Shown here in pieces: positions 1-32,531 of a stretch of 32,531 nucleotides of DNA. The translations under genes were made by a program, and so were the position numbers. The DNA is from Planctomycetota bacterium. GTDB lineage: Bacteria; Planctomycetota; MHYJ01; JACQXL01. Under the pieces are notes generated by a model that saw nothing but the letters and a program-made list of their open reading frames with translations, ran no database searches and was not told the origin of the DNA. Within the stretch, counting starts at the first letter, position 1. Each line of letters starts with the position of its first letter. Location of the stretch: positions 1-32,531 of the forward strand of contig JACQXL010000073.1 in NCBI GenBank assembly GCA_016208805.1, read 5' to 3'.

Positions 1-94
1 ATTCTGAACGGAGTCCCGCTTCAGCGGGACGAAGTGAAGAATCTCCGTTTTATGCGTATTTGGGACGAGATTCTTCGCCCTTCGGGCTCAGAAT
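1..94. repeat. REP-like composite palindromic element (nested hairpins), truncated by window start
   Basis: Outer inverted repeat ATTCTGA (1-7)/TCAGAAT (88-94). Perfect hairpin GTCCCGC-TTCA-GCGGGAC (13-30). 10-bp inverted repeat GAAGAATCTC (37-46)/GAGATTCTTC (67-76). GCCC-TTC-GGGC hairpin (77-87). It lies just 3' of the minus-strand regulator gene, so it may also act as its terminator. Confidence 0.5.
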
Positions 95-175
95 GACACT
101 CTCCGGGTGGTCTTTTTCCCATTTCGCAAGAGTTCAGTAACTTGTTAATTTACAATGAGTTATATAAAGTTGCGC

Positions 176-907
176 CTAGTTCACCTTTACCCAAACGACC
201 GGCCAGGCCCAGAGGACGTCCGTTTCCCGGACCATCAGCGGCTCAAACCGGGGGTTAAAGAAGCGCAGGACTGCCATATCGCCGTCCAAACGGTTGAGTT
301 CGGCCAGATAGGTGCGAAAGTCGGACAGGGTCAGCAGGATAATATCGCCGAGGTAGGGTTGTTTCTGGGGTGAGATGACAAAGAACGCACCAGGCCGGAA
401 GGGCGGATAGAGGGCATCGTCCTGGAGCCGGATGCCAAAGGCGTCCGGGTCGGTCAGTCCAGCTACAGCAGGGTAGTTCTCAGATGCCTGGGTCTGGCGC
501 CAGCCGGGTGCGCCGAACTGGTTATTAACCGTTCCGCCGGAAGTGATGGCAAAGACCGGGATAAGGGGAGTCGGTCGGTCTCCCCCGACATAACTCGGGG
601 TCGGCTGGTCTTCCGGTCTTCCGGTCTGACCATCTGGCTGGTCCTCTCCCGCCATAAGTGGCGGGATCTCCACCGACTGATGTATCAGGTTTATCAGGTC
701 TTGAACCGGCACCTGTAAGAGTTCAGACAGTGATTTAAGTTTGTCGTTATCAATCTTGCTGGGGTAGCGGCCGTTGAGGAGGTCAACTAGGTAACTATAG
801 TTTATGGAGAGTTTCTCAGCCAGGACCTTCTTGGGGATGCCGCTCTTGATGCGGAGGTCTTCTATGATTTCCCAGGGGTATTTTGGTTTTTGCTCTTCCA
901 TAACCAC
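176..907 (-). CDS. XRE-family HTH regulator with C-terminal LexA/CI (S24 peptidase)-like domain that appears to lack the catalytic Ser
   Basis: 243-aa ORF. The N-terminus IKSGIPKKVLAEKLSINYSYLVDLLNGR is a Cro/C1-type helix-turn-helix. A Pro/Gly-rich linker follows. The C-terminus LQDDALYPPFRPGAFFVISPQKQPYLGDIILLTL...AVLRFFNP follows the S24 beta-barrel pattern (GDSM..GD.v.v) by eye, but has Ala where the nucleophile Ser is expected. The ORF-track start at 907 is GTG; an ATG at 901 is an alternative start. Confidence 0.75.
   Translation of the reverse strand: MVMEEQKPKYPWEIIEDLRIKSGIPKKVLAEKLSINYSYLVDLLNGRYPSKIDNDKLKSLSELLQVPVQDLINLIHQSVEIPPLMAGEDQPDGQTGRPEDQPTPSYVGGDRPTPLIPVFAITSGGTVNNQFGAPGWRQTQASENYPAVAGLTDPDAFGIRLQDDALYPPFRPGAFFVISPQKQPYLGDIILLTLSDFRTYLAELNRLDGDMAVLRFFNPRFEPLMVRETDVLWAWPVVWVKVN
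648..677 (-). repeat. 30-nt shared hairpin-containing segment, copy in the regulator linker (reverse orientation)
   Basis: The reverse complement of 648-677 is GTCGGTGGAGATCCCGCCACTTATGGCGGG, identical to 3393-3422. It is translated in frame as SVEIPPLMAG in both genes. The core is CCCGCC-ACTTAT-GGCGGG, a 6-bp stem. Confidence 0.85.
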
Positions 908-976
908 AGATGAACACAGATAAACACAGATATTTCCGGATAATTTATCAGGGTTAATCCGTGTTTATCTGTGGTT
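902..976. repeat. CACAGAT-family inverted-repeat element with no cargo between the arms
   Basis: The left arm AACCACAGATGAACACAGATAAACACAGAT (from 902) faces the right arm GTGTTTATCTGTGGTT (961-976), whose reverse complement is AACCACAGATAAACAC. It abuts the start codon of the regulator gene. Confidence 0.7.
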
Positions 977-1073
977 TCATTAAATACGGATTTTTTCCAA
1001 ATAATATTCAAGAATTATTCGTAGATATCCGATATAATAGTAACTCGTATTCTACATTAATAGCCGTAGAGTA

Positions 1074-1091
1074 CCCCGCCATACGGCGGGG
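1074..1091. repeat. GC-rich hairpin CCCCGCC-ATAC-GGCGGGG
   Basis: Perfect 7-bp stem with a 4-nt loop. The stem sequence is related to the CCCGCC/GGCGGG core of the 30-nt shared segment. No T-tract follows on either strand, so it is not a classical terminator. Confidence 0.5.
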
Positions 1092-1174
1092 CAGGCACGG
1101 ATTTATACGAACAACTTACAATGATTACGGATGAAGTCAAGAAAATATACAGAGTTTCTGAAGTTTTATGGCAA

Positions 1175-1202
1175 ATTACAGAAATAGTGATATAGTTATA
1201 AT
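1175..1202 (+). promoter_or_regulatory. Candidate sigma-70-type promoter for the ATPase-secretin block
   Basis: ATTACA (1175-1180), a 16-nt spacer, then TATAAT (1197-1202), about 125 nt upstream of the 1329 start. This is a pattern match only. Confidence 0.2.
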
Positions 1203-1328
1203 GGGGAAAAATACGGATTCCCTACGGGATTCACATAATGTTGATCCCGCAAGGGATACCGGATGCGCGATGCGGGATATGAGATGTGAGAACCCATATC
1301 GCACATCCCATATCTCGTATCGCAGTGT

Positions 1329-2261
1329 ATGAGTTACTTTAAGATTTTAGGATTGACGCAGGAGCCGTTTTCCACGAGTCCGGACCCGGTTTTCTTTTAC
1401 GAGGCCCGGGCGCACAAGACCGCACTGACCAACCTGATTATTGAACTGCGGCTCCGGAGGGGTTTGAACGTGATTTTAGGAGATGTCGGCACGGGCAAGA
1501 CGACCTTAAGCCGGAAACTGATTCAGGCGCTCTCGGTCCGGGAGGGATTCCTGTTCCATATCATCCTTGACCCGACCTTTGACCCAGCACCTACTTTGGC
1601 TGAAGGATCTACTTTAGCGTCTTGCCCTTATGCCAAAGTGGGTGCTGGGGAGTTTCTGTTCCTGTCATCTATGGTTCGGACATTCGGGATAGAGGTTGGG
1701 CCGAATGCCACTGTTTTAGACCTCAAGGAGGCGCTTAAGGCGTTCCTGTTTAAGACCGGCGTGGAAGAGCGCAAGACCCTGGTGTTGATTATAGATGAAG
1801 CCCAGAAATTGACCGAGCCGGCGCTGGAAGTCCTGCGCATCCTGTTGAACTATGAAACCAATGAGTACAAACTCCTGCAATTAGTGCTATTGGGGCAGTT
1901 GGAACTGTATTCCCGGATTATTACCATCCCGAACCTGACGGACCGGATAAGTTTCAAATACACCCTGAACCCGCTGGACGAGGACGAGACCCGGGAGATG
2001 ATAGATTTCCGTCTGCGCCAGGCGGGATATCAGGCCAGAAGCGGGTTGTTTACGGCCGGCGCGGTCAAGGAGATACACCATCACACCAAGGGCTATCCGC
2101 GCCAGGTGGCGCTTTTGTGCCACCAGGCGCTTAAACAGGCGATAATGAAAACCAGGTCAGTGGTAGATGACAAGATGGTCAAGGATGTTATCCATGAGGA
2201 GGTAAGAAACGGGTGGTCGGTGCAAACCCCGCCAAAGGCCGCATCGACTCAAATGAAATGA
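1329..2261 (+). CDS. ExeA/GspA/MshM-family AAA+ ATPase (secretin-assembly type)
   Basis: 310-aa ORF. N-terminus FKILGLTQEPFSTSPDPVFFYEARAHKTAL, Walker A GDVGTGKTT, Walker B LVLIIDEAQKL, then LQLVLLGQLEL and LNPLDEDETREMIDFRLRQAG. These are the hallmark blocks of the COG3267 ExeA family. The protein ends after the ATPase core, with no TM or peptidoglycan-binding extension. Confidence 0.85.
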   Translation: MSYFKILGLTQEPFSTSPDPVFFYEARAHKTALTNLIIELRLRRGLNVILGDVGTGKTTLSRKLIQALSVREGFLFHIILDPTFDPAPTLAEGSTLASCPYAKVGAGEFLFLSSMVRTFGIEVGPNATVLDLKEALKAFLFKTGVEERKTLVLIIDEAQKLTEPALEVLRILLNYETNEYKLLQLVLLGQLELYSRIITIPNLTDRISFKYTLNPLDEDETREMIDFRLRQAGYQARSGLFTAGAVKEIHHHTKGYPRQVALLCHQALKQAIMKTRSVVDDKMVKDVIHEEVRNGWSVQTPPKAASTQMK

Positions 2262-2400
2262 CGAATGTCTAATGACGAATGACGAAATAATGACTAAATG
2301 CTCAAATGCCGAAATTTAGGCATTAGGTCATTCGGTATTCTTTCGTCATTAGGGTTTAAACATTAGTCATTGTTTCGGATTTAGATATTCGGATTTCGTA
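2262..2400. repeat. Imperfect long palindrome built from AATGACG/CGTCATT-type heptamers
   Basis: AATGACGAATGACGAAA (2271-2287) faces TTTCGTCATT (2341-2350). AATGCC (2305-2310) faces GGCATT (2319-2324). AATGACTAAATG (2289-2300) faces CATTAGTCATT (2361-2371). The region lies between the ATPase gene and the next ORF. Confidence 0.6.
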
Positions 2401-2416
2401 TTTAAGGAGATAGTGG

Positions 2417-3208
2417 ATGGCAGGACCTGATACCACCAAAGACGGTCTGACCCCGGAAGAGCAGTTATTACGTATCATAGAGTCAGACAGTCCCGCTAAT
2501 AAGCAGTCCCGACACGGTGGTGTCGGGACTGCGGCTCAACAAAATCCGGCGGTATCAACTGATGCCACCTTAATTGAGGGGCTTCAGATAAAGGAGTCGC
2601 CCCGAACCGGACTGGTTAAGTCGCTGGGCGCGGTGTTAGGACGGTCGTTGGCCGGCCGTTCGGCGCTTAAGGTGGTCAACCGGTTGTTGATGGTGGCGCT
2701 ATTGGGGCTGGCCGGCTATCTGGCCTGGGACGTGTCCGGAACGGGCCAGGGTAATGCCGCACAAATCCCGAATACAGGCGGCGAGATAGTTGTGCCGGAT
2801 ATCCCGGCCCAGCCGCCCATTGACGAGGTGATTAAAGAGGTGGACCGACGTAATATCTTCCGGCCGGTTGAGGTCAAGATAATTGAAACCGCTACCGGAC
2901 CGACCACGCCGACCGCCACCGCGACCGGGCCGACCGTCGTTGAGGTAAAATCACCCCTTACCGAAATCATCAAAAACTTCCGGCTGATCGGAATTATGTG
3001 GTCGGCTGAAAAGCCGGTGGCCATTATTGAGGATAAGTCCTTGAATAACCAGACCCATTGCGTGGCCAAGGACGAGGAAATCTTCTCCCGGGACCAGGCC
3101 AACGCCACCCGGGAGGTGAAGATAATTATCAAGGAAATCGCCAAAGACAAGGTGATTCTCCAGTTTGAGGACGAGGAAAAGGAATTAAGGGGGGAGACAA
3201 AATGGTAA
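2417..3208 (+). CDS. Bitopic membrane protein with C-terminal GspC-HR/PilP/ExeB-like beta domain (putative secretin-interacting assembly factor)
   Basis: 263-aa ORF with an AAGGAG RBS (2404-2409) 7 nt upstream. It has a hydrophilic N-terminus, one TM (VVNRLLMVALLGLAGYLAW) and a Pro/Thr-rich linker (TGPTTPTATATGPT). The C-terminus FRLIGIMWSAEKPVAIIEDKSLNNQTHCVAKDEEIF...VKIIIKEIAKDKVILQFEDEEKEL resembles GspC-HR/PilP domains. Position and topology mirror ExeB next to ExeA. The stop overlaps the secretin start. Confidence 0.55.
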   Translation: MAGPDTTKDGLTPEEQLLRIIESDSPANKQSRHGGVGTAAQQNPAVSTDATLIEGLQIKESPRTGLVKSLGAVLGRSLAGRSALKVVNRLLMVALLGLAGYLAWDVSGTGQGNAAQIPNTGGEIVVPDIPAQPPIDEVIKEVDRRNIFRPVEVKIIETATGPTTPTATATGPTVVEVKSPLTEIIKNFRLIGIMWSAEKPVAIIEDKSLNNQTHCVAKDEEIFSRDQANATREVKIIIKEIAKDKVILQFEDEEKELRGETKW

Positions 3209-4923
3209 CCACAGATAAATCACACCATGTCGGTATGACGTGGCACAGATGGACACGGATAACACTGATATTGTTAGGGGTTCTCTGCGTGCTCGGCGTC
3301 TCTGCGGTGCGGACGGATTACCTGGCTGAAGAGAAGGTCGTGAAAGAGGCGGCGGCTCCGCCCGTAGTTAAGTTAGACCCGATTCAGGAAGGGTCGGTGG
3401 AGATCCCGCCACTTATGGCGGGGTTGAGCAAGACCTTTTCGCCCCAGGTCAAAGAGGCCAATATCCGCGATGTCCTCTGGTCGCTTAAGAAAATCGGCAA
3501 CCTTAATATCGTCACCACCAAAGAGGTGTCCGGCACGGTAACATTGTTTTTAGAGAATGTCACCATCGGCGATGCCCTGGAAATCATCCTGATTACCAAC
3601 GGTCTGGCCAGGGAAATCAAGGGCAATATCATCAATATTATGACCGAGACCCAGTACCAGGCGCTCTACGGCGACCCGTATAATAACAAACGGGTGATTC
3701 AGACCTTCAAACTCCAGTATGCCCGCCCGCGCAAGGTGTCCGCTTTCCTTGAGAAAATCAAGACCAGCGGCGGCTCTATCATTCCGGACGACGGCAGCGG
3801 CACCCTCATCGTCATAGACGTCCCGGATAAAATCAACCTCTTAGCCGAGTCCATCAAACGGCTGGATATGCCGACTGAGACCAGGACATTTGAGTTGAAA
3901 TACGCCGCGGTTGAAGATGTGGAGCCGTCCATCACCAAACTGTTGACGCCGGACTACGGCGAAATCAAGATTGATAAACGGATGAAAAAGTTGATTGTCA
4001 CGGATTCGCCCAGGAATATGGGTGTCATTGAGAATATGGTCAGGGAATTTGACTCCAAACCCAGGCAGGTGTTGATTGAGGCCAAGATGATACAGGTGAT
4101 TTTGTCCGAGGAGCATCTGATGGGCATAGACTGGCGCCAGGTATTCTCGGGGTTCTCGTCCCTGGAGAATGTCAAGTTTATGGGTTCGTTTCCGATGGGT
4201 ACCAAAGATAAGACCTGGCTGGTTCCGGATAAGATTATCAAGGGCGAGGAGACTATTGTTAAGGATGTCGTAAACCGCAACATCCTGCAGGCCCAATTCG
4301 GTACCATCGGCCAGACGCATTATCAGGCGGTTCTCCAGGCGCTCCAGGGCTACGGCACCAATAAGGTCATCTCCGCCCCGCGGCTGATTGCCTTCCAGGA
4401 AAAGGAATGTGTCTTTGAGGTAAAGACCCAGGAGGCATATACCCAGACGACCGTGACCACATCCCAGGCCACTTCCACCACATCCGAGCAGGTGATGTTC
4501 AAGGATGTGGGCGTATTCTTGAGGGTGACGCCGTCCATCAATCAGGATGGTTTTATCACAATGAAGGTGGCGCCTACGGTCAGCCAGGTGACCAAAATCT
4601 ATGAAACGCCGCAGGGCAATAAGATACCCATTGTAGAAGAGGCGACCACGACCACAACGGTCATTGTCAAAAACGGTGTCTGTATTGTCATCGGTGGGCT
4701 GATTAAAGACGACAAGTTCCAGCAAAAAATGGGCGTGCCGGTGCTTTCCAGCATCCCGCTCATCGGCGGGCTATTCGGTTCAACCCGCGATTATACCGCC
4801 AAGACCGAGACGGTGGTGTTTTTAACGCCGTCCATCGTCACCGGCGAGGCGGATTCATCAGTCATTACCAAGAAAGGCGATTTGGAAGAGAAGGAGTTGA
4901 AAGACCTGAAACCTATAAAATAA
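3202..4923 (+). CDS. Secretin (GspD/PilQ/MshL family) outer-membrane channel
   Basis: 573-aa ORF with an N-terminal signal-like segment (MTWHRWTRITLILLGVLCVLGVSAV). N0/N1-type ring domains are present (FKLQYARPRKVSAFLEKI..., FELKYAAVEDVEPSITKLL...). The C-terminal secretin core includes VLIEAKMIQV, NKVISAPRLIAFQEKE, GVFLRVTPSINQDGFITMKV, VIVKNGVCIVIGGLIKD and GVPVLSSIPLIGGLFG...TETVVFLTPSIV. An alternative start is the ATG at 3235. Confidence 0.92.
   Translation: MVTTDKSHHVGMTWHRWTRITLILLGVLCVLGVSAVRTDYLAEEKVVKEAAAPPVVKLDPIQEGSVEIPPLMAGLSKTFSPQVKEANIRDVLWSLKKIGNLNIVTTKEVSGTVTLFLENVTIGDALEIILITNGLAREIKGNIINIMTETQYQALYGDPYNNKRVIQTFKLQYARPRKVSAFLEKIKTSGGSIIPDDGSGTLIVIDVPDKINLLAESIKRLDMPTETRTFELKYAAVEDVEPSITKLLTPDYGEIKIDKRMKKLIVTDSPRNMGVIENMVREFDSKPRQVLIEAKMIQVILSEEHLMGIDWRQVFSGFSSLENVKFMGSFPMGTKDKTWLVPDKIIKGEETIVKDVVNRNILQAQFGTIGQTHYQAVLQALQGYGTNKVISAPRLIAFQEKECVFEVKTQEAYTQTTVTTSQATSTTSEQVMFKDVGVFLRVTPSINQDGFITMKVAPTVSQVTKIYETPQGNKIPIVEEATTTTTVIVKNGVCIVIGGLIKDDKFQQKMGVPVLSSIPLIGGLFGSTRDYTAKTETVVFLTPSIVTGEADSSVITKKGDLEEKELKDLKPIK
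3207..3262 (+). repeat. 56-nt CACAGAT-family repeat, copy A (inside the secretin 5' end)
   Basis: AACCACAGATAAATCACACCATGTCGGTATGACGTGGCACAGATGGACACGGATAA matches 4942-4997 with 3 mismatches. Confidence 0.85.
3393..3422 (+). repeat. 30-nt shared hairpin-containing segment, copy in the secretin N-terminal region
   Basis: GTCGGTGGAGATCCCGCCACTTATGGCGGG is identical to the reverse complement of 648-677 and encodes SVEIPPLMAG. Confidence 0.85.
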
Positions 4924-4941
4924 CAGCGTCTAACATAATGA

Positions 4942-4997
4942 AACCACAGATACATCACACCATGTCGGTATGACGTGGCACAGATGAACACCGATAA
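4942..4997 (+). repeat. 56-nt CACAGAT-family repeat, copy B (just 3' of the secretin stop)
   Basis: AACCACAGATACATCACACCATGTCGGTATGACGTGGCACAGATGAACACCGATAA. Its 3' end is one arm of a 10-bp hairpin, ACACCGATAA (4988-4997) with TTATCGGTGT (5009-5018). Confidence 0.85.
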
Positions 4998-5045
4998 ATT
5001 ATACTGGATTATCGGTGTGCATCATAAGACAGTGGAAAACAGGAT

Positions 5046-5414
5046 ATGGCCTTTGAACACAAAGAAATAATCCACGAAATACTCAATGCGTCGTTTGAGG
5101 TTCATAATACTTTAGGATGCGGATTTTTAGAAAAGGTTTACGGAAAAGCCCTCTTATATGAACTGAGGCGAAGAGGGTTAAAAGTAGAAGCACAAAAGGA
5201 GATAAAGGTTTATTACAAGAAAGTTGAGGTGGGTAATTATATCGCAGATATGATCGTTGATGGGAAGGTAATAATAGAATTGAAAACTGTTGAAGAAGTG
5301 GTTAAAATCCACGAAGCCCAATTATTAAACTACTTGAAGGCAAGCGGCTATAAAGTAGGACTTATTTTAAACTTCGCTAAGACGAAATTAGAATACAAAA
5401 GATTAGTGATGTAA
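5046..5414 (+). CDS. GxxExxY family protein (PD-(D/E)xK nuclease-like fold family)
   Basis: 122-aa ORF. The signature GCGFLEKVY matches the G-x-x-E-x-x-Y motif. Family-typical blocks are EVHNTLGCGFLEKVYGKALLYELRRRGL and ADMIVDGKVIIELKTVEEV..HEAQLLNYLKASGYKVGLILNF. Confidence 0.9.
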   Translation: MAFEHKEIIHEILNASFEVHNTLGCGFLEKVYGKALLYELRRRGLKVEAQKEIKVYYKKVEVGNYIADMIVDGKVIIELKTVEEVVKIHEAQLLNYLKASGYKVGLILNFAKTKLEYKRLVM

Positions 5415-5478
5415 AAGATGAACGCAGATAAAAATCCGTGTTTATCTGTGTGTATCTGTGGTTACAAGGAGGTTAGTT

Positions 5479-8400
5479 ATGAGACTGCGTAATATTCTGG
5501 TAATTGTATTTCTTGCCTATGTGCTCGGGGTTAACATCCTGGCCTTTGTCTTTATGACCTCGGCCTCGTCGGCCAAGGCGAAGATAGCGGACAAAGACCG
5601 GGAGGTGCAGGCGGAAAAGACCCGGCACGAGCAGTCCGAGCAGAAACTGCTGGCCGAGAACAGTCAACTGGCCGAGAAACTGGCCTTGATACAGGATGAC
5701 CGGAACAGCGATAAAAAGACCTATGAAGGGTCGGTGACCCAGGCCGAGAAACTAACCCGTGAGGTTGCCTCATTAAAGAAAGACTTGGAAACGGCCAAGG
5801 CCGAGGCCAAGAAGGCGATGGAAGAAAATATCAGCCTGCAGGCCGAGCTCACTGCCAAGAAAGACGATCTCATCAGGAAGACCCAGTCGGAATTGAGGAG
5901 TAGTTTTGAAATAGAAAAGGCCAAACTCCGTAAGGAGCGCGATGATGCCAAAGAGATAACCGAGCGGACCCAGAACGAGCGCGATACCTTCCGGGCCGAA
6001 CTCCAGCGCACTAAACAGGAGTTATCAGGCCTGCGGGACGAGAAACCGGCCCTGGAGCGTAAAATCACGACACTGGAAAAACAGGCCCGCAACGAGATGG
6101 ACGAGAAGAACAAACTGACCGAGCAACTACGCGATGAACGGGCCAAGACCAATAACCTGACCACCCAGAATGCGGCACTGACCGCCACCAATAATAAACA
6201 GGCCGACCAGATTAAGAACAACGAGAGCCAGATTGCACTGCTGACCAGACAGTCCCGCGATATGCGGGACTCGGCTGCGGCTGCGCAGAAGGATGCGACC
6301 GAATTGATTTCTACGCTTAAGACGCAGGGGTTGAGCCAGGAAACCCAACTCAAGACCGAGAAAACCGAGAAGGTCAAGTATTACGAGCAGGCCAAGAAAC
6401 TGGAAGACCAGATTGCCCTGCTGACCAAGGATAAAGAGGCGTTGGAGAAGACGGTGGCCCGGCTGAATAAAGAGGCCGCGGAAGACAAGGCGGCTGCCAA
6501 GAAGCAGGAAGCGGATGCCAATAAAAAGATTGCGGAATGCGGAGTGCGGAATGCGGATTTAGAAGAGAAACTGGCCAAGAGCGAGGAGCGAGGCGCCAAG
6601 TCAGACGCGCGCGTAGCGAATTTAGAGAAGCAAGTAACCGATGCCAATAAGCGGAATGCGGATTGCGGATTGTCCCTCGTTGCTCGGGATAAACGGATTG
6701 CGGATTTAGAGAAGCAAAACGTCCAGGCAAAGGATGAAATCACTACCGCACTCAAGGAGATAGCCGGTTTGCGGGCTGATAAAAATACCCTGCTGGCCGA
6801 GAAAAACCTGGCCCAGAAGGAGTCGGCCGGTCTCTCCCGCAGTATGCGGGACTCCGCTGCGGCTGCGCAGAAAGAGTTATCTAATGTAAGGGCGCAATTT
6901 TCGGAGCAATCCGGCGCACATAAAAAGGCGTTAGACGAACAGGAAGGCAAACTCAAAGAAGCCAACTCCATAAATGCGGAATGCGGATTGCGGATTGCGG
7001 ATTTGGGAAAACAGTTAGATGATGCCAATAAGCGGAATGCGGATTGCGGATTGTCCCTCGTTGCTCGGGATAAACAGATTGCGGATTTAGAGAAGCAAAA
7101 CGTCCAGGCAAAGGATGAAATCACTACCGCACTCAAGAAAGTGGCCGGTTTAACCAATGATAAAAACACCCTGTTAGCCGAAAAGAACCTCTTAGAGAAA
7201 GAAGCCACCGGCTTGCGTAAGGAGATAGCCAACGTAAAGACCCAACTCTCGGAGCAGGTTGCCACCGCCAGGAAGTCAGCAGACGAAGCAGAGTCCAGGG
7301 TACGTTCCGTGCGGGACGAAGAGACGGCTAAATACAAGAAACTCCAAGCGGATATGGAATCAACCCAAGGTCTGGCCAAGAAAGAAAAGACGGATTTGGA
7401 AGAGTCCAATACCGGGCTCCGGAGGGAAAATACCGACCTGAAAGATACGTTGACCAGGCAGAAAAAGGCAATGGAATTGGTCCAGGCCGACGCGGACAAG
7501 AACCGGACCGAACTGCGTAAAATAACGGACGCGGCCACAGCGGAGTCCCGTCTATGGCGGGATGACCGTGACAAACTCGCTCGGGATAAGGCGAATCTGG
7601 AAGAAACCAAGACGGCTAAAGATGTGGAGATTGCCTCATTAAACGCCAATATCAAGACCCTGGCCGCGTCCAACACAGACGCGCAGAATACCATCCAAAA
7701 GATGAAGGACGAAAACGGCAAGATGAAGGAAGACCTGGCCAAGAGCCAACAGCAAATAACCAAGAGCGCCGAGCAAACAGCCAAATTGTATCAGGTCGGC
7801 TCGGCCAAGGATGCTGAAATTGCCGCGCTTAATGCCGAATTGACCAAGATAAAAGATGAGAACGGAAAGATGTCCCTGCGGGAGGCCGCGCTCAAAGACG
7901 ATTTAGCCAAGAGCGAAAAGAGCAACTCCACATTGCAGGCCGACCTGAAGAATCGGACGCAGATAAACGCAGATTTACAGGATAAATTGACCAAGAGTGA
8001 GGAACGAGTAGCGATGAGCGCGGGGCAACTGGCCAAGGTAGAGGGGAGCAACTCCAAGAGCAAAGAGCAAATTGCCAAACTGGAAGAGTCCAAAACCGCC
8101 AGGGATAAAGAGGTCGTTTCGCTCAATGCCGAACTCGGAAAGATGAAAGATGAAAGCGGAAAGATGAAAGAAGACCTGGCGAAAAGTCAACAGCAAATAG
8201 CCAAGAGTGAGGAGCAGATAACCAATCTTAAGTCCCAGATATCAAGTTTGCAGGTGCAAAACACTTCACTGAATAAGCAACTTACGGAACTGGGCAACGA
8301 TAGTCGTAAGCAGACGACCGACCTGACCGACCGCCTGCGTAAGGAAACCATTGCCAAAGAAGAAATGGTCACCCAGTACCGTTTTGCCACGGACAAGATT

Positions 8401-9678
8401 TCCCTGATGGAGAAAGAGGTCAAGCGGCTGGAAGGGATAAATCAGACCGCAGAAAAGAACTATTATGCGGCCGAGAAGGAGCGCAAACAGGTTGAGACCG
8501 AAAGGGCCAAGTTGGCAGACGATGTAAAGAAGTCGGACGACCAGCGAGCCAAGGCCAAGGAACAAATCGCCGGTCTGCAGGATACCATTGCCAAGGTGAA
8601 AGATGACAGGGATAAGATGTTGGCGGAAAAAACCAGCGCCGAGGGATTAGCAAGCAAGACGGCTAAATCTATGGAAGAACAGACCGCCAAGACGGCTCAG
8701 ACCGTGGCCGGGCTGGAATCGCAGATTGCCGCCCTCAAGACCCAGGTAGCCGATGCCGCCAAAGAGGCCAAGGATAAGGCCCAGGAAGCCGCCAAGGCCA
8801 GGGATGAAAGAGACAAGGCCAAGGAGGATGCCACGCGGGTAACCAAAGAAAACACGGCTTTCAGGGATAAGAACGACCAGGTGTTATTGGACATCTCGGC
8901 GCTCCAGAATAAGATTAAGGCCCAGGAATACGAACTGAACGAGGTCATCCGCAAGGAGCGGGCGGACAAATTCACCGCGGTCAACGACCTCAATACGGCC
9001 AAGGGGACCATCCAGACCCTGACCTGGCAGAACTCGGAACTGACGGCCAAGGTAGATAATGCCACTAAAGCCGAGGCGACCCTGAAGGCACAATTGAAGA
9101 ACCTGGATTCTGATATGCAGGCGGTGATTAAGCAGGAACGGGACGCCAAGAACGCCCTGTCCGCCAAATTGGACGAGTCCGAGGCCAAGGTTAACGGGTT
9201 GATTAAAATAGAGACGGATTTAAGGCAGAGGAATGCCGCCCTGGATAAGGAGATTGTTGCCTTGAAAACCGGTATGGAGCAGAAAATTGCCGATACGATG
9301 AAACAGCGCGAGGCCGAGTATATCAACCAACTCAAGGAGGCCAGGGAGAAAATCAAGTATATGGAAGAGACGATGACCAAGGAGCGTTCGTCCTTCCATT
9401 ATAACTTGGGTATTGCCTATACCCGGAGCCGGTTGTTTGACGATGCCGTGCGCGAGTATCAGCAGGCCCTGACGCTGACACCCAAAGAACCGGCCATTTA
9501 TTACAATATGGGCGTTCTCTATGACGAGTATTTAGACGAGCCGTCCAAGGCCATCTCGGCCTATACCAAATACCTGGAATATGCGCCGCCCGATGCGGCC
9601 GACCGGGATAAGGTTAATAAATGGATAGAGAGTTGCCAGAAACGGATAAAAGAGCCCAAGGGGGGATTTAATAGGTGA
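5479..9678 (+). CDS. Membrane-anchored giant coiled-coil protein with C-terminal TPR repeats
   Basis: ATG at 5479 preceded by AAGGAGG (5466-5472); the ORF-track start at 5458 is an upstream GTG. N-terminal hydrophobic anchor LRNILVIVFLAYVLGVNILAFVFM. About 1,250 residues are K/E/A/L/Q-rich heptad-like sequence with no Pro-rich breaks seen. The C-terminus FHYNLGIAYTRSRLFDDAVREYQQALTLTPKEPAIYYNMGVLYDEY...AISAYTKYLEYAP is TPR-like. Confidence 0.88.
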   Translation: MRLRNILVIVFLAYVLGVNILAFVFMTSASSAKAKIADKDREVQAEKTRHEQSEQKLLAENSQLAEKLALIQDDRNSDKKTYEGSVTQAEKLTREVASLKKDLETAKAEAKKAMEENISLQAELTAKKDDLIRKTQSELRSSFEIEKAKLRKERDDAKEITERTQNERDTFRAELQRTKQELSGLRDEKPALERKITTLEKQARNEMDEKNKLTEQLRDERAKTNNLTTQNAALTATNNKQADQIKNNESQIALLTRQSRDMRDSAAAAQKDATELISTLKTQGLSQETQLKTEKTEKVKYYEQAKKLEDQIALLTKDKEALEKTVARLNKEAAEDKAAAKKQEADANKKIAECGVRNADLEEKLAKSEERGAKSDARVANLEKQVTDANKRNADCGLSLVARDKRIADLEKQNVQAKDEITTALKEIAGLRADKNTLLAEKNLAQKESAGLSRSMRDSAAAAQKELSNVRAQFSEQSGAHKKALDEQEGKLKEANSINAECGLRIADLGKQLDDANKRNADCGLSLVARDKQIADLEKQNVQAKDEITTALKKVAGLTNDKNTLLAEKNLLEKEATGLRKEIANVKTQLSEQVATARKSADEAESRVRSVRDEETAKYKKLQADMESTQGLAKKEKTDLEESNTGLRRENTDLKDTLTRQKKAMELVQADADKNRTELRKITDAATAESRLWRDDRDKLARDKANLEETKTAKDVEIASLNANIKTLAASNTDAQNTIQKMKDENGKMKEDLAKSQQQITKSAEQTAKLYQVGSAKDAEIAALNAELTKIKDENGKMSLREAALKDDLAKSEKSNSTLQADLKNRTQINADLQDKLTKSEERVAMSAGQLAKVEGSNSKSKEQIAKLEESKTARDKEVVSLNAELGKMKDESGKMKEDLAKSQQQIAKSEEQITNLKSQISSLQVQNTSLNKQLTELGNDSRKQTTDLTDRLRKETIAKEEMVTQYRFATDKISLMEKEVKRLEGINQTAEKNYYAAEKERKQVETERAKLADDVKKSDDQRAKAKEQIAGLQDTIAKVKDDRDKMLAEKTSAEGLASKTAKSMEEQTAKTAQTVAGLESQIAALKTQVADAAKEAKDKAQEAAKARDERDKAKEDATRVTKENTAFRDKNDQVLLDISALQNKIKAQEYELNEVIRKERADKFTAVNDLNTAKGTIQTLTWQNSELTAKVDNATKAEATLKAQLKNLDSDMQAVIKQERDAKNALSAKLDESEAKVNGLIKIETDLRQRNAALDKEIVALKTGMEQKIADTMKQREAEYINQLKEAREKIKYMEETMTKERSSFHYNLGIAYTRSRLFDDAVREYQQALTLTPKEPAIYYNMGVLYDEYLDEPSKAISAYTKYLEYAPPDAADRDKVNKWIESCQKRIKEPKGGFNR
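6640..6810 (+). repeat. Internal in-frame duplication in the coiled-coil gene, copy 1
   Basis: GATGCCAATAAGCGGAATGCGGATTGCGGATTGTCCCTCGTTGCTCGGGATAAAC... recurs at 7021-7191. The offset is 381 nt (127 codons). The first ~115 nt differ at one position. Peptide: ANKRNADCGLSLVARDK.IADLEKQNVQAKDEITTALK. Confidence 0.85.
6976..7003 (+). repeat. Heptanucleotide tandem repeat GCGGAAT(GCGGATT)x3 inside the coding sequence
   Basis: Four contiguous 7-nt units are read as NAECGLRIADL. Shorter or imperfect arrays occur at 6532-6559, 6651-6671 and 7032-7052. Confidence 0.9.
7021..7191 (+). repeat. Internal in-frame duplication in the coiled-coil gene, copy 2
   Basis: See 6640-6810. The two copies diverge after about 115 nt (LKEIAGLRADKNTLLAEKNL versus LKKVAGLTNDKNTLLAEKNL). 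Confidence 0.85.
9394..9600 (+). other. TPR repeat region of the coiled-coil protein
   Basis: Two to three units of about 34 residues with the TPR small/large residue pattern (YNLGIAY...A...Y..AL...P; YYNMGVLY...A...Y..YL...P). Confidence 0.7.
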
Positions 9679-9758
9679 GCGACGTTATACGAAACCACAG
9701 ACCGCAGGCACAGATAGACACAGATACGATGAATTATGGGGGTAATGGGCATCCCCAG

Positions 9759-9905
9759 AGGTTTCGGGGACATCCCTACGAGTTAGGGGGAACTCCCCCC
9801 GAGTTAGGGGGAACTCCCCCCGAGTCAGGGGGAACTCCCCCCGAGTTAGGGGGAACTCCCCCCGAGTCAGGAGGGCTTCCCTATGAGTTATAGGGACTTC
9901 CTTCT
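9759..9905. repeat. 21-bp tandem repeat array (GAGTYAGGGGGAACTCCCCCC) with degenerate flanking units
   Basis: Core units at 9780-9800, 9801-9821, 9822-9842 and 9843-9863 are identical except for one T/C position. Degenerate units lie at 9759-9779, 9864-9884 and 9885-9905. Each unit has two mutually exclusive hairpin options, GGGGG-AACT-CCCCC or GAGTT-AGGGGG-AACTC. There are no spacers, so it is not a CRISPR array. Confidence 0.9.
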
Positions 9906-9967
9906 ATTTCCGGATAAATACGGATGTAATCCGTGAAATCCGTGGCTGGGACTCCAGAAAAATCCGT

Positions 9968-10003
9968 GTTACGAAAAGGTAACAAATGTTACGATATCGT
10001 AAC
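9968..10003. promoter_or_regulatory. Paired palindromic sites: GTTAC-N6-GTAAC and a perfect 16-bp palindrome GTTACGATATCGTAAC (candidate operator/UAS)
   Basis: GTTACGAAAAGGTAAC at 9968-9983 and GTTACGATATCGTAAC at 9988-10003. The centre lies about 140 bp upstream of the -24 element at 10138. Confidence 0.4.
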
Positions 10004-10136
10004 AGAACCACCTGTAAACGGATTAAACGGATTGAGCGGATAAGATTTATTTACCACCGGGAAAACCCTGTAAAATCTGCTAAATCCGTTAAATCCGCTT
10101 ACTAAAGCGAAAAAATCCGTGTAATCCGTGGCTGGC

Positions 10137-10152
10137 TGGCACGGGTTTTGCA
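10137..10152 (+). promoter_or_regulatory. Sigma-54 (RpoN) -24/-12 promoter element
   Basis: TGGCACG-GGTT-TTGCA matches the consensus TGGCACG-N4-TTGCW exactly (GG 10138-10139, GC 10150-10151, GG-N10-GC spacing). It sits 13 nt upstream of the giant-ORF ATG (10165). Confidence 0.6.
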
Positions 10153-10164
10153 TATATGTAGTTC

Positions 10165-13100
10165 ATGAGAAATGAGCCACAGATTAAGTTAGGTGGCTGG
10201 CGAGCCGTTAAGTTCATCGGGCTTGCGGCCGGTATCGTCTTTATTGCCTTCCTGCTTGCCTATACGGCCAGCCAGAACTGGCATTTCGTTGACCCGGCCA
10301 CGGACTATGTGCTTGATTCAACCACGGACACCATTTCCGGATTGCCCAATATAGAACTGGTCACCCCCTCTTCCATAGCCCGGCTGACTCTGCATCCGGG
10401 CCGGACCTATACGGCCGAGACCAAGAGCGGCGGGGACTATAACTTTGATAGCGGTCTATACGGGTCATATCTAACTGCAACCGTCCCGGAGAAGGTTGTC
10501 CGGCTGGCTAACTCCGCTAACGGTGGCTACGGCAACTTTGACCCGGCGGCCGGGCTGGCCAGCGGGTCGTTCCTGTCCCGGATATTTGACTCCACCGTAG
10601 CCGGCTCAAACTGGACCAATATCGGCTGGACGGATAAGCGGTCTGAGACGGCTGAGGCATCGGCGGCCCTGACCGCGACTATTTCCGCCCTCTATCGTTT
10701 CAACACGGCACCGGGCATTATAGCCGATTCCGGCACTTATGCCAATACGTTGGCTAACAGCGGCGCGGCGCTCAGCGGGGTCCAGCCGAATGACGCCAAC
10801 GGCGAGGGGTTGTATAACCAGTCTGGCTATTTTAACGGCGCCAGTTATCTTTCAAGGGCAGACGCCGGCTCAACAAATCTTAACTTCGGACAGGATAGTT
10901 TTTCAATGGAATGCTGGGTCAAGACCAGTATGACCGGCAAAGGTCCGATAATAAATAAACGGGCCGCCGTAATTACAGGCACCCTGGGATGGGAAATCGG
11001 GTTGAACTATGATGACACACCGGCAAATGCCGGCAAGCCCTATTTAGCCATTATCTTGCAGGACTATGACGTTGAATTGTCACAGGCGGCCAATTTCCCC
11101 CAGTATCTTTCGGCCGGCAGGCCGGTTAACGATAACCAGTGGCACCATATCGCGGCCTATCGCCAGATAGACCAGATAGCGATATATGTGGACGGTATCT
11201 TTCAAGGCAAGTCAGGGCTGGATAACCCGGCCGCTAACGTAAATAATGCCGCCACAATGTATATCGGCTGGGCGACTGAAACTTATGAAGGAACAACAAC
11301 GAATTACTATTATACCGGTAAACTGGACGAATTAATCCTCTATAAAGGCAGGGTGTTGACAGAATCAGAGATTTTCAGTCGTTATGAACGGGGTTTAGGC
11401 GTGAAATTCAGGGTCAGGGCGAGCGATACGGCCACATCCGGCTGGACGGATGCGGTGCCGGCCTGGTCAGGCGAGATTATCAATTCATCTACAACGCCAT
11501 CAAGCGTAACCACGGTCAGCGGCCGGTATTTCCAGTATCAGGCGGTATTAGAAAGCCGCAACCGCGGCGCCACGCCGATGCTGACCCAGGTGGCAGTTTC
11601 CGGCCCGGCCAGTCCGGCCGATAAGACTGATGACGGCTCACAATCGGTAGAGTTTGACCCGGAGCAGATATATACGAATCCGTGGGGGACGAGCAGACGT
11701 ACGATGACGGTCTATCGGACGGACTATATAAGTGTAAAGCCGAGGACGGACCTAACCGCGGCCCGGGCCGGCACGGAAGATGGCATCACGGCTTTGTGGC
11801 GGTTGGAAGGCAATACTACTGATTTAGCCGGAGGTGATAATCCGGCCATTCTTATGAATAGCCCGGTCTACAGCACGACCGTAGTGGCGCTCAGTCCGTC
11901 CAACACTAATTCTATCCAGTTGGATGGGGTGAATCAGTATCTGACCGCGGCGCATAGCGCCAATATCGCCTTTAAGTATGACCATACACTAGAGGCCTGG
12001 ATATATCCGACTGTTGCCCTTGATGCCTCGGGCTTGCCTTCTCAACTGGCGCCGGCAATGACTATTTTGGACAAAGGCGGCTATAAGGTATGGTGGGATA
12101 ACAAATCGGGCAAGATGCTCTATGAACTGCAGGATGTGACGGCAAAGGGGGTATGGCAGAAGGATAATCTGTTTAAGAATGCTACGGCCAATTTCCAGTC
12201 CGCCACGCCGTATTTTTCAGAGTTGATACAGTGTATGGCGGTCTATCGGGGTAAACTATATGTTGGGGTATCAGGCAATTTTGTTGCGACGACTACTACT
12301 AATGGTGAGGCAAGAATTTATGTCTATGACGGCAAGACATGGGAATTAGCATATGACCCAGTTCCATTAGGTGCATTATTAGACTATGAACGAGTGCTAT
12401 GTATGACAGTTGCTTATGATAGACTATACTGCGGATTAGGGATTACTATTGATGATGGTGACCTTGCCATATTTGATGGCACAAATTGGACTATGAATTA
12501 TGGACTTGATGCTGCAGATTACGAAGGTGTTTATTCGCTGGGTACCTGGAAGGACGGCGGGACAGAGTATCTCTATGCGGGAGTAGGGTATAGCGGTAAC
12601 GATGCTGATGTATATTATATTAACAGCGCCGGCACCTGGACACAGGTTGCAAATAACTTGGGCAATGATGATGCCGTAACAAGTTTGTATGTATTTAAGA
12701 ATAAACTCTATATCGGGACAGGACTTGATAGAGATGAGGCAATTGTCTATCGTTATGATACGCCGCCTACTGTAGCGACTGCACCGGTCACGGTTTATAA
12801 CCCGTCTGCCACCGAGGCGTTAGAGAATGTGCAGTGTATGACCGAATATAATGGTAAGATATATGTGGGGTTTGACGGCAATGCGGCCGGCGATGCGGAC
12901 TACGCAGTCTCTGACTCGGGCGATTCCGGCACCTGGACGCTCTATAAATATAACCAGATTGGCGGGGTCGGCACGTTTGAGGGTATCTATACGATGTTCA
13001 CCTATGACGGCAAGTTATATGCCGGGTTAGGCACATCAGCCGGTGATTGCCAACTCTGGTATACGACAGATGGAACCGGTTGGACGCGCGATGATGACCT

Positions 13101-16100: not shown

Positions 16101-19100
16101 CACGCCCATCTCGTGGAATACGGTTGGGACAATACCGAATGTGAATGTTTGGTATATAGATGACTTCGGTTCAGTTAAAATCACCGGTCCGATATCCAAT
16201 ACCGGTGGAATTCTCTGGACAATCACGGACGACCTCAATCCCGACCCTAATAGTAATGTAAGGGTCTGGGTGGAGAATGCGGACGATACAACAGTCAAGT
16301 CACAATCACTCAATGCCTTCAAAATAAAGGGTGAGATTACGGTGGGTAAACCGGTGGGCGGCGATACCTATCTGGCTTATCACTCGTCTTATCAAACCAC
16401 GACATATTCCATAACTTGGACAGTTACCGGTTCAATCCCGTTTGTCAGGTTAGAGTATTCTACGACCGGCGAATTCGGGGCATATTCTACCGTAGCGCCG
16501 CCGGCGCCGGTAATCATTGCCTGTGGTGCGACCGGGACATATAATTATACCTGGCAGGTGCCATCTGTCCTCTCCGTGGCCTGCCGGGTCAAGGTGTCTG
16601 ATAGTGCCGATACAGCGGTCTATGGACTTTCTCAGCCAACAGACTTCACCGTAAAGGGCAAATTAGAGGTTACCGCTCCGATAAGTAGCGACATCTGGGC
16701 GGTGGGTGATACTGATAAGATTATTAAATTTAAGGTTACCGGCAACATCGGCGATGCCAGGATAGAGTATCTGGATAATACCAGTACCTGGCAGCCAATT
16801 ACCACAAGTTTCCCCGCTACGGCCGGCATAGAAAATTCGTATCAATGGTCAAGCGGGGTGGCGGACGTAATCACAACTACTGCCAGAATCAGAGTGAGGC
16901 CGGTGATTGCTGAGCGGGCTGACCCGTCGGAATCACCGCTCTTTACCATAAAGACTAATATTAATGTATACAAACCGGCGCTTAATGACTCGGTCTATGT
17001 CTATCATCCGACCTATCAGCCGACTAAATACCCGATTACATACACATATACCGGCACGGTTACCAATGTCAAATTCCAGTATTCAGCCAACGGCGATGCC
17101 GGTCCGTGGACGGATATCGGGACGGGCTTTACTAACGGCGATGGCACCGGGCAATATAACTGGGAGGTGCCGAATGTGATTACTTCCACCGCTAAGGTAA
17201 AGGTACTGGATAATGATGCCAACCATCCGGCGGCCGAGGGCAAATCCCAGCAATTCCTGATTAAAGGTAGACTGATTGTGGCTTATCCGTCCGCGGGCGA
17301 TGCGGTAACGTATCAGGATAATATTGCCATTAGTTGGACCGCGGTCGGGTCTTTTACGCCGGTTAAAATAGAGTATTATGACGGCACCAGTTGGGTTACG
17401 CCGGAGATTACTTCCAGCGCGGCCAGTGTTTCAGGGACAAATAACTCATATCCTTGGAATATACCGGATAAGGATTCTGATACCTGCAAGATAAGGGTTT
17501 CATCAACCGACTGGCAAAATATCTCTGCGGAAGGCGGCGTATTCCGGATAAAGGGTAAGGTGCAGGTAACCACGCCGGCCGGCGGTGAAGTATATGTGAT
17601 AGGCCAGAACCCGGTTATCAGTGGCACGAAATCAACCTCGGTAAGCGCAATTAAGTTAGAGTATTATAATGACGGTTCGGTTTCTCCAGGCTGGGAGACA
17701 GTAGTAACGAGTTATGCCGTAGCGCCATTGACCACCTGGAGTTACAGCGGCTGGACCGTACCGGATAAGATAAGCGCCGACCCGTTCAGCCCGGCCGCCA
17801 AGATAAGGATAACTGATGTGACCGTGGCAGGTTATTCGGATGTGACTTCTACCAGCAATAGTTTTAAGGTAATAGGCAGTTTCACCATTACCTATCCAGA
17901 TGCAGTCGCAACCTGGGGTGTAGGGGAACCAAGACCTATTACATGGACGACCAACGGTTCAATCAGTAAGGTCAATATCCAGTGGAGCATTAATGGTGTT
18001 ACCTGGACTAACTTTGTGACTAATTACGACAATAACGGCAACGGCACCACCGCTATCGGCATTACCGTGCCCGATGCCATCACCAACACTTTCAGGGTAC
18101 GTGTTGCTGCCAATACGGATAGCACGGTCTATAAGGACTCGCCTAATTTTGTGGTCAAAGGCAGATTCCTGATGACCCAGCCGATTTCTACAACCAAGTG
18201 GTTGGTAAATAATCAGGAGGATATTAAGTGGGATGTCTGGGGAACAATCAGTAAGGTAAATATATATTACTGGAATCAAACTATCCCTGACTGGGTTAGT
18301 ATTACAACTAACGCCCCGGCCACCAATACAGTCACTACAGGACAATACCTCTGGACCATCCCGAACCTTATCAGAGATGACATTAAGGTGAAGGTGGAGA
18401 ATGTAGATGACACTTCGGTGGTAAGAGAATCGGACCCGTTTAAGATAAGAGGAAAAGTGCATATAGATGTTCCTAATGGCGGGCAGGTGTATTATGTCTA
18501 TGACACGGTTGACCAGCCGACCAAGAGCCCGATACAATTCACGATAACCGGTTCAATAACCACTGCGCTTAATTTAGAATATTCTATCGATGACGCTGTC
18601 TGGAATCCGATAGCAACCACAACCGTAGCCAGCGCCGGAGTATATACTTATCAGTGGGAAGTGCCTGGCACAGTACCAACAAATATTTGCAAGACCGTTA
18701 AGGTCAGGATAGTAGATACGGCGGTTGAGGGTGAAATAGACCCTTCTGATGCCAATTTTGAGATAAGGGGCAAGATATTTGTAACCGGTCCGATTACCAC
18801 CACGGTCTGGGCAGTAGGCGAGATTGGAAACAGCATCGTCTGGACCTCCGTAGGTAACATCGGCAGTGTAACCCTGCAGTATCTCAAAGACATCACCTGG
18901 ACGAATATAACCACGGTTGCCAGTAATGACGGTACGAACAATTACCTCTGGTCGGCCGGGGTAGCGAATGCCATATCCAGTGCGGCGAAGATACGGGTCG
19001 TGCCTGACCCGGCATTTGACCGTGCCAGCCCGGCCGAATCGCCCGCATTCAGTATCAAAAGCACGATCACGGTGGGTAGCCCGATGGCCAATGCGGTCCT

Positions 19101-31754: not shown

Positions 31755-32531
31755 GCTCTCAGTTAGTGAGCCGGCGGCCGGACGCATCTGGCTGTATAAC
31801 ACCAGCCAGAATATCCTCTGGAATTCATTAGGTTCTATCAGTGCTGTCAAGCTGGACTATTCTAAAGATAATGGAACAACCTGGGTTACCCCGCCTATTG
31901 AAGCAGCCCGGGCAAATAATAATGGTCCTAATTCCTATTCCTGGCTTGTGCCTGATACGATTGTGCCTGATTTCAGATGTCTGATTCGTCTTACCGATGT
32001 GAGTGATTCTACTATATCCGCCACCTCTGGTGCATTCAAGATTCGTGGAGATATCTCCGCGGTCTTCCCAACTACCCCTGACCTTACTCTCTATGTGGGT
32101 GAATCCAGGACCATTACCTGGACAACATCAGGCACGATTCCTTTCGTTAAGATAGAGTATTCTATGAATGACGGGTCAAGCTGGGTTACGCCTCCTATCG
32201 CCGAGTCAACCAGTAATACTAATTCCTATCCCTGGACCGTGCCGGATGCGATTACTAATACGGTCAAGATTCGTGTGGCTGATGCAGCCGACCTTTCGGT
32301 CAATGGTGTCTCTATGAGTTTTAAGATTATGGGCAGGGTGCTGGTCAACCAGCCGTCGGATATCGGTCTTGCCTGGGTTGTCGGCACGACCCAGAAGATT
32401 CGCTGGACCACCACCGCAACTATACCACGGGTTAAAATAGAATGGTCTGAAACCGACTTCTCCACGGTTTATTCCAGCACAGAGGTAGATTGTGGTCCGG
32501 CCGGCGTCTATGAGTATGACTGGACCATCCC
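31648..32531 (+). CDS. Continuation of the giant protein (frame 1), open at the window end
   Basis: Hand translation gives TDIRVTLKITDANDPTVYKL...KIRGTLSVSEPAAGRIWLYNTSQNILW...KIRGDISAVFPTTPDLTLYVGESRTITW...KIMGRVLVNQPSDIGLAWVVGTTQKIRWTTTATIPRVKIEWSETDF...YEYDWTIP with no stop. Confidence 0.8.
32391..32531 (+). repeat. 141-nt exact copy of 31041-31181, terminating the window
   Basis: Base-for-base identity at an offset of 1350 nt. The identity starts after a single G/C mismatch at 31040/32390 and runs to the last base of the window. Confidence 0.95.

Follow-up and report, generated by a model that had tools for sequence, protein, structure and literature searches.

The window analysed here, 32,531 nt of contig JACQXL010000073.1 from a Planctomycetota bacterium (GCA_016208805.1), carries an identical 30-nt hairpin segment in two unrelated genes on opposite strands, one encoding a secretin and the other a regulator. 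This segment, named el29, is probably a tagged palindromic repeat of the repetitive extragenic palindromic (REP) type that is dispersed in the planctomycete genome and recently landed in the two genes. Observed here are the repeat and its extra copies, the hairpin that it forms, its absence from the orthologous genes and its relationship to other hairpins with tags. The identical decapeptide that both copies encode is most likely a by-product of DNA insertion, with no functional link between secretin and regulator.

An Identical Segment in a Secretin and a Regulator Gene

Exactly two copies of the 30-mer GTCGGTGGAGATCCCGCCACTTATGGCGGG are present in the window, one at 3393-3422 (+) and one at 648-677 (-). 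The first lies in the secretin gene (3202-4923, +; STN, Secretin_N and Secretin domains) and the second in the regulator gene (176-901, -; HTH_3 and Peptidase_S24-like domains). According to Pfam, an exeA-like AAA_22 ATPase gene (1329-2261) and an unannotated open reading frame, orf3 (2417-3208), are located between them. The copies are 2.7 kb apart in inverted orientation and 100% identical, the identity ends exactly at the borders of the 30-mer, and the flanks were unrelated in a k-mer census. None of 100 dinucleotide shuffles produced a match. The T of TCGG begins a codon in either gene, which yields the same peptide SVEIPPLMAG, corresponding to residues 65-74 of the secretin and 76-85 of the regulator. 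The duplication and the shared frame reported in the preliminary description are thus confirmed from the sequence.

The peptide had also been placed in a disordered linker of both proteins. AlphaFold2 models agree with this for the regulator, where residues 76-108 have a predicted local distance difference test (pLDDT) score below 50 and the peptide opens this linker right after the last HTH helix. For the secretin the statement holds only in part: the peptide is located at the C-terminal edge of a low-confidence stretch (residues 31-66), but its second half (residues 70-75) is predicted to form a short helix beside the first folded domain. Exact-protein look-ups of the window secretin and regulator returned no other record holding either.

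Anatomy of el29

Over the four copies known (two in genes and two intergenic, see below) the base before the core varies (G, G, A and C), and the conserved unit comprises 29 nt (3394-3422) plus a trailing G or A. The length of 30 nt given earlier is therefore exact for the two genes, but the leading G, being A or C elsewhere, is not part of the unit. Counted in this way the secretin copy TCGGTGGAGATCCCGCCACTTATGGCGGGG spans 3394-3423 (+) and the regulator copy TCGGTGGAGATCCCGCCACTTATGGCGGGA spans 647-676 (-). The unit consists of the unpaired head TCGGTGGAGA, followed by the hairpin TCCCGCCA-CTTA-TGGCGGG(R). A stem-loop had been described with arms and loop of 6 nt each; it is present, but extends further, as (T)CCCGCCA-CTTA-TGGCGGG(A), to a stem of 7-8 bp with a 4-nt loop, the eighth pair being provided by the trailing A in the regulator copy. 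As single-stranded DNA el29 folds with -9.3 to -10.3 kcal/mol (z about -4). A GTGG is located 3-4 nt and a GGAG 1 nt from the foot of the stem, and the reverse strand ends in CCGA. Five of the six reading frames are without a stop codon, the sole stop being a TAA on the reverse strand.

No consistent target-site duplication and no duplicated k-mer was detected across the flanks of the four copies, and the secretin junction is ambiguous over GGGT only. As a short stem-loop in the range of about 20-40 nt that inserts without target-site duplication, el29 resembles REPs in both respects.

el29 as an Insertion in the Secretin Gene and a Probable One in the Regulator Gene

Orthologous loci of two further genomes were compared with genome A, the source genome (window and NCBI contig JACQXV010000085.1). 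This is a planctomycete, and its best hits carry the names Planctomycetota or Brocadiia. Genome B, from Logan run SRR22387954 (L001, L002 and L065), is a close relative of roughly 90% identity. Its locus L001 contains exeA, orf3, the secretin gene and the next gene with 89-94% nucleotide identity to the window (92% across orf3 and secretin), L002 the regulator gene (62% amino acid and 76% nucleotide identity) and L065 an acyl-CoA dehydrogenase gene (91% amino acid identity, nucleotide identity within the same 89-94%). Genome C (GCA_043808305.1; L066, L067 and L068, about 42 kb) is more distant, with a secretin 58% identical, and keeps the arrangement parB ... regulator on the reverse strand, followed by exeA-orf3-secretin-large protein.

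The secretin of genome B (P0001, L001), which is 93% identical to that of the window, reads IQEGLSK without interruption (KLDPIQEGLSKTFS), whereas the window protein reads KLDPIQEG-SVEIPPLMAG-LSKTFS. The more distant orthologues P0002 and P0004-6 also contain IQEGLSK without a gap, as does genome C. Because close and distant orthologues are uninterrupted at this position, the secretin copy is, as judged from the sequence alignments, a recent, derived and clean 30-nt insertion.

The syntenic regulators of B (L002) and C (L067) likewise lack SVEIPPLMAG. The window regulator reads IHQ-SVEIPPLMAG-EDQPDG at this site, compared with IHQEGEDPDSA in B and LFH-P-DNTTG in C. The regulator copy is therefore probably an insertion as well; as the linker is variable and the orthologues are at most 62% identical, this is probable rather than proven. 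The earlier proposal of a miniature repeat tolerated as an in-frame insertion is thus borne out clearly for the secretin and with probability for the regulator.

The regulator differs from its relatives in other ways. The gene shows 76% nucleotide identity to genome B and is far more diverged than its neighbours (89-94%), and its downstream neighbour is not the parB gene found at this place in B and C. In its S24 (LexA-like) domain it has DDAL where all 10 complete aligned orthologues have DDSM or DDSL, so that an Ala replaces the presumed catalytic Ser, and an Arg is found where most orthologues have a Lys.

Additional Copies in a Probably Adjoining Contig

About 186,000 species-representative genomes were scanned with the 18-nt hairpin core. 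This gave 19 matches, mostly terminators in unrelated taxa, a number similar to that estimated for chance, and among them only L009 (JACQXV010000085.1) holds the full element, with 29 of 30 nt. The end of this contig (132 nt, L063 1-132) is 100% identical, as reverse complement, to window 1-132. The contig (GCA_016208715.1) is binned as Candidatus Woesearchaeota, yet it carries bacterial genes whose closest relatives are found only in Planctomycetota; the close relatives of its acyl-CoA dehydrogenase, for instance, are all planctomycete. It also has intergenic repeat families in common with the window. From the overlap, the planctomycete relatives and the common repeats we conclude that it belongs to the same assembly and probably adjoins the window, and that it is probably mis-binned or the metagenome-assembled genome mislabelled.

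This contig holds two copies of el29 (L063 5344-5372 and 10254-10283), both in intergenic DNA, so that the search for further copies suggested by the preliminary description did yield two more, in non-coding DNA of the same assembly. One of them is identical to window 3394-3423 over 30 of 30 nt. The other differs at two positions, the two bases of the closing pair (C-G to T·T), a change that is not compensatory; this variant is also present in a separate Logan assembly, L064 (SRR12113406). Both intergenic copies precede a start codon by 14-15 nt, point their TCGG end toward the gene and are antisense to it, whereas the copies in the secretin and the regulator have the sense orientation of the mRNA. 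The acyl-CoA dehydrogenase gene is preceded by el29 in genome A and, at the orthologous place, by a different hairpin, GTAG-TCCCGAT-gtcc-ATCGGGA-CGAAGG, in genome B (L065 300-372). One site is thus occupied by different hairpins in different strains. A segment at 2217-2232 of the window with three mismatches to the el29 head was rejected as a copy, being ancestral sequence that is also present in L001, and is regarded as a chance match.

A Wider Family of Tagged Hairpins

el29 is accompanied by about ten hairpins of the same superfamily in 49 kb. Perfect hairpins are about threefold enriched over dinucleotide shuffles, with 10 against 3.1±1.6 in window 1-10200 and 15 against 5.5±2.3 in L063. 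In genomes A and B, the stems of at least seven hairpins start with TCCCG and are preceded on one strand by GTAG or GGAG; among these sisters the tag is located directly at the foot as GTAG, the canonical form, in two cases and as GGAG in three. Written in the same form, el29 reads GGAG-a-TCCCGCCA-ctta-TGGCGGG(A).

The hairpin noted before at 1074-1091 does exist. Together with its tag, GTAG-agta-CCCCGCC-atac-GGCGGGG, it covers 1066-1091 (+) in the intergenic region between the regulator and exeA-like genes, with GTAG 4 nt from the foot. Its head GTAGAGTA is similar to that of el29 (GTGGAGAT) and the stem core CCCGCC/GGCGGG is common to both, which makes it a probable diverged relative. A sister hairpin, GGAG-TCCCGC-ttca-GCGGGA-CGAAG, is located at 10-30 (+), downstream of the regulator gene and inside the 132-nt overlap with the adjoining contig.

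Aligned over about 5.4 kb of coding sequence, genomes A and B differ by four in-frame hairpin insertions besides el29, and two of these four carry TCCCG-stem hairpins. For relatives of about 90% identity this amounts to about one in-frame insertion of a hairpin in each kb of coding DNA compared. Three of them are found in A. In orf3, an insertion of a sister family adds 45 nt at 2491-2535 (+), forming the hairpin GCAGTCCCGACAC-ggtg-GTGTCGGGACTGC with a perfect stem of 13 bp (-17.6 kcal/mol); this insertion is absent from L001 and largely from genome C. In the exeA-like AAA_22 gene a hairpin insertion at 1583-1649 (+) gives a net gain of 63 nt (21 amino acids) where L001 has GAGC. Its two 24-nt arms differ only at GTAG/GTGG, the fold has -21.9 kcal/mol, and the insert may represent a REPIN-like doublet from a different family. 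Neither the exeA insert with its 21 amino acids nor the one in orf3 is present in genome C. In the acyl-CoA dehydrogenase gene (L063 5387-6586) the 33-nt insertion GTAG-TCCCGACAC-ttc-GTGTCGGGA-CGAAGG (L063 5909-5941) adds, in frame, residues around PTRSVGTTEGK, which are absent from the 91%-identical protein of genome B and from all other close homologues. The fourth insertion is specific to the secretin of genome B (L001 1616-1650), where GGAG-TCCCGA-ctatc-TCGGGA adds 33 nt and the peptide SRDSRDSAAA.

Relatives of this last insertion occur in the window in the gene for a 1399-aa coiled-coil protein. The hairpin AGTCCCGC-gatat-GCGGGACT with the tail CGGCTGCGGCTGCG (6251-6282, +) is in frame, encodes SRDMRDSAAAA and is 87% identical over 31 nt to the genome-B-specific insertion. 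At 6835-6864 (+), TCCCGCA-gta-TGCGGGA with the tail CTCCGCTGCGGC is again in frame, encodes SRSMRDSAAAA and has 18 nt exactly in common with the genome-B insertion; its reverse strand (6835-6855) reads GGAG-TCCCGCA-tac-TGCGGGA. A second hairpin family hence encodes SRDxRDSAAA in the same frame of unrelated proteins, twice in the coiled-coil protein and once in the secretin of B.

Comparison With Known Repeat Systems

REPs are hairpins of 20-40 nt with a tag of the GT[AG]G type, which is degenerate in some families (PMC3733652). They are present in Planctomycetes, e.g., in Rhodopirellula baltica (PMC3733652; PMC6006769), and are known to occur in frame within genes, where insertion into linkers or loops is thought to be neutral (PMC3733652). 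Most intragenic GTAG repeats have been reported from Opitutus terrae, a member of the same Planctomycetes-Verrucomicrobia-Chlamydiae (PVC) superphylum; most elements of this organism are tagged GTGG, and in some REP families tag and stem are separated by spacer nucleotides (PMC3733652). el29 resembles the GTAG-tagged superfamily of REPs, which have REP-associated tyrosine transposases (RAYTs, TnpA-REP), in size, in the short GC-rich stem-loop flanked on one side by an unpaired tag and in the missing target-site duplication (PMC3733652, PMC3116915, PMC6006769). Further likenesses are the several sequence families per genome, the occurrence in the PVC group including Planctomycetes, the in-frame copies in linkers and loops and, in the sister hairpins, the canonical GTAG at the stem foot. 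It differs in its tag (GTGG/GGAG, 1-4 nt from the foot) and in that most members found here are intragenic. el29 may accordingly be classed as REP-like, with incomplete family membership. The 63-nt insert in the exeA-like gene is similar to REPINs in its doublet style, but has GT[AG]G inside the arms.

A candidate for a mobilizing system in the right phylum are the class 3 TnpA-Y1 loci of Planctomycetes and Acidobacteria, which have CnGA-footed hairpins in high copy number (PMC6006769). The reverse strand of el29 does end in CCGA, but this is located 3' of the hairpin and 7 nt away from it instead of at the 5' foot.

Rickettsia palindromic elements (RPEs) are the classic in-frame palindromic insertions (PMC10969869). 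Similar to el29 they are palindromes in frame in unrelated genes, with a family-specific peptide and in proteins that are probably functional (PMC10969869; PMC3733652). RPE-1 has about 100-150 bp, whereas RPE-4 and RPE-6 are short with a CGTC tag; they are found in Alphaproteobacteria and show no similarity to el29 in sequence, and el29 adds only 10 amino acids. As size, tag and sequence differ and only the in-frame behaviour is common, an assignment of el29 to these elements was rejected. The small dispersed repeats (SDR) of Nostoc/Anabaena, reportedly described by Elhai et al. in 2008, are said to be 21-27 nt long, in part palindromic and recognised as insertions against related genomes. They would share with el29 a dispersed occurrence and a size below 30 nt, but are cyanobacterial and unrelated in sequence.

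Other classes were rejected as well. Miniature inverted-repeat transposable elements are 70-300 bp long with terminal inverted repeats of 15-30 bp and direct repeats, whereas el29 measures 30 nt as a whole, has a stem of only 7-8 bp and shows no consistent duplication. A DNA uptake sequence (USS/DUS) does not fit a clean 30-nt insertion relative to the orthologue, which is not a substitution. A CRISPR repeat and a dif/att site were dismissed for want of an array and in view of copies inserted in frame into genes, and a transcription terminator because the hairpin is not followed by a T-run.

Origin of the Two Copies and Alternative Explanations

Mobilization as single-stranded hairpin DNA has been proposed for REPs with RAYTs and demonstrated for the ends of IS200/IS605 (PMC3116915, PMC6006769). 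By analogy to these, el29 would spread as single-stranded hairpin DNA that a tyrosine HUH transposase similar to RAYT/TnpA-REP may cut and rejoin in trans without target-site duplication. In this most probable reading two copies landed recently within coding sequence, where they persist because an addition of 30 nt does not shift the frame, only one of the six frames has a stop codon and both proteins differ in length from orthologue to orthologue at these positions.

Several points weigh against such a REP-type origin. Neither the window nor L063 (49 kb) contains a gene for a Y1/HUH transposase or RAYT/TnpA-REP. The tag is non-canonical, with GTGG 3-4 nt and GGAG 1 nt from the foot, and the published tag variants include GTGG but not GGAG (PMC3733652). 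Two of the four el29 copies and about 7 of the 11 superfamily members are inside coding sequence, so that neither el29 nor its superfamily is predominantly extragenic, whereas intragenic REPs are a minority elsewhere (PMC3733652). The four known copies all fall into a stretch of about 14 kb, provided that the two contigs are in fact adjacent. No el29-like sequence within seven substitutions was detected in about 42 kb of genome C (L066-L068), a scan of viral contigs gave no matches, and a scan of JGI metagenomes with GGTGGAGATCCCGCC-N3-9-GGCGGG returned no new copy of el29 (40 matches, mostly in unrelated high-GC contigs and none with the ACTTAT loop). In addition, the insertion in the regulator is called probable from orthologues of at most 62% identity in a variable linker.

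Insertion targets of the hairpins include a conserved enzyme (the acyl-CoA dehydrogenase), an AAA ATPase and the secretin. It is conceivable, with a clearly lower probability than the REP-type origin, that the genome harbours an unusually active hairpin system that inserts mainly in coding DNA, that the copies 14-15 nt upstream of start codons are exchangeable modules for translation or stability, or both.

A regulatory role would be expected if el29 were a selected cis-signal, such as a protein-bound DNA or RNA hairpin, a stabilizer in the 5'-untranslated region or a translation element, with functional or co-opted copies in the genes that couple regulator and secretin. Effects of REPs on mRNA stability and translation are known (PMC6006769), both intergenic copies have the same distance to the start codon with the same end toward the gene, and before the acyl-CoA dehydrogenase gene this place is taken by another tagged hairpin in genome B. 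Against this, the copies in genes are sense and the upstream copies antisense, so that no common reading at the RNA level exists, which also makes the shared RNA-level regulatory hairpin considered in the preliminary description unlikely. el29 is moreover absent from the orthologous genes of B and C despite the conserved regulator-exeA-orf3-secretin arrangement, the sole diverged copy has a non-compensatory T·T closing pair, and a search of the whole window against Rfam matched no family. We therefore regard a cis-signal as unlikely, above all for the copies in genes, whereas it is conceivable for the two copies upstream of start codons. Nearly the same holds for a one-off local copying of a 30-nt patch between regulator and secretin by template switching or microhomology-mediated repair, without any mobile element, to which we give slightly less weight. 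The close spacing and complete identity of the two copies would be expected from it, as would the GGGT microhomology at the secretin junction and the similarity of the inferred ancestral targets (TCAGGAAGGG for the secretin, TCAGGAGGGG for the regulator of genome B). It leaves unexplained that the adjoining contig has two intergenic copies, with a match of 30 of 30 nt to the secretin copy in one case, and that several other tagged hairpins with the same stem core occur in A and B; in addition neither gene copy is an obvious donor, because both look derived.

The same frame and the same decapeptide in both genes could also indicate a peptide motif, i.e., a recognition or cleavage site tying the regulator to the secretin, with Ala-Gly in a LexA-like linker. 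LexA-type repressors self-cleave at an Ala-Gly in their linker. For the regulator this was rejected: with DDAL in place of DDSM/DDSL and an Arg where most orthologues have Lys, the presumed catalytic Ser and Lys are replaced, and self-cleavage is therefore unlikely. The DNA of the copies is identical without a single synonymous difference, two copies are not translated at all and SVEIPPLMAG is absent from all orthologues, which contradicts the shared motif proposed before. Two insertions with five of six frames open would agree in orientation and frame with a probability of about 0.2, and the shared peptide therefore requires no functional explanation. A peptide motif is thus very improbable. 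Even less probable is an artefact of assembly or a chimera. The metagenomic origin of the contig and the lack of any further record with exactly these two proteins would be in line with it, but both copies are in frame within one contig, and the same element is present in the NCBI contig and, as a variant copy, in the separate Logan assembly L064.

With el29 read as a recently inserted REP-type repeat, the presence of one decapeptide in a secretin and its neighbouring regulator is explained by selfish-DNA traffic rather than a regulatory link, which avoids a false functional annotation. Both this kind of element and its in-frame tolerance have been described already; el29 is unusually small and recent, and would represent a REP-like family of very small size (30 nt) in a lineage of planctomycetes that is uncultured and has received little study. 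If the density of insertions is general, these genomes would be a good natural system for the movement of tagged hairpins and the tolerance of proteins to insertions in loops and linkers. Genome-wide, hairpin elements would then contribute a major share of the variation in the linkers and loops of proteins.

Neighbouring Repeats and Cassettes

The surroundings of the secretin gene contain further repeats. A 33-nt exact direct repeat is found in the first secretin codons (3219-3251) and in the spacer after the secretin stop codon (4954-4986). It belongs to an intergenic repeat type, CACAGATAAACACAGAT / AATCCGTGTTTATCTGTG, which also occurs at 900-982, 5416-5460 and 9690-9720. Such repeats encode the N-terminus of the secretin (MVTTDKSHH...) and the C-terminal extension of the acyl-CoA dehydrogenase of genome A (...TTDTHR), both of which differ from B. 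Downstream of the secretin, 4924-5466 comprises a PD-(D/E)XK_3 nuclease gene (5046-5414) and repeat-rich flanks; genome B lacks this segment and has a 96-nt spacer there. In sequence it resembles an inserted cassette with CACAGAT-type repeats at its borders. Logan run SRR12113406 contains an identical nuclease protein with the same neighbour.

Hairpins are also formed by tandem motifs of 8-9 nt at 2257-2371, 1255-1323 and 10014-10102, and the elements at 2257-2371 and 10014-10102 have counterparts of 69-90% identity in the adjoining contig. A 21-nt unit, GGGGGAACTCCCCCCGAGTTA, is repeated four times in tandem at 9779-9871, each unit forming a hairpin, in the long spacer before a giant gene. 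This gene (10165-31197) is a single open reading frame of 7010 amino acids with internal repeats of a period of about 2.1 kb (e.g., 18755-18878 is repeated as 20843-20966), and at the end of the window 32391-32531 repeats 31041-31181.

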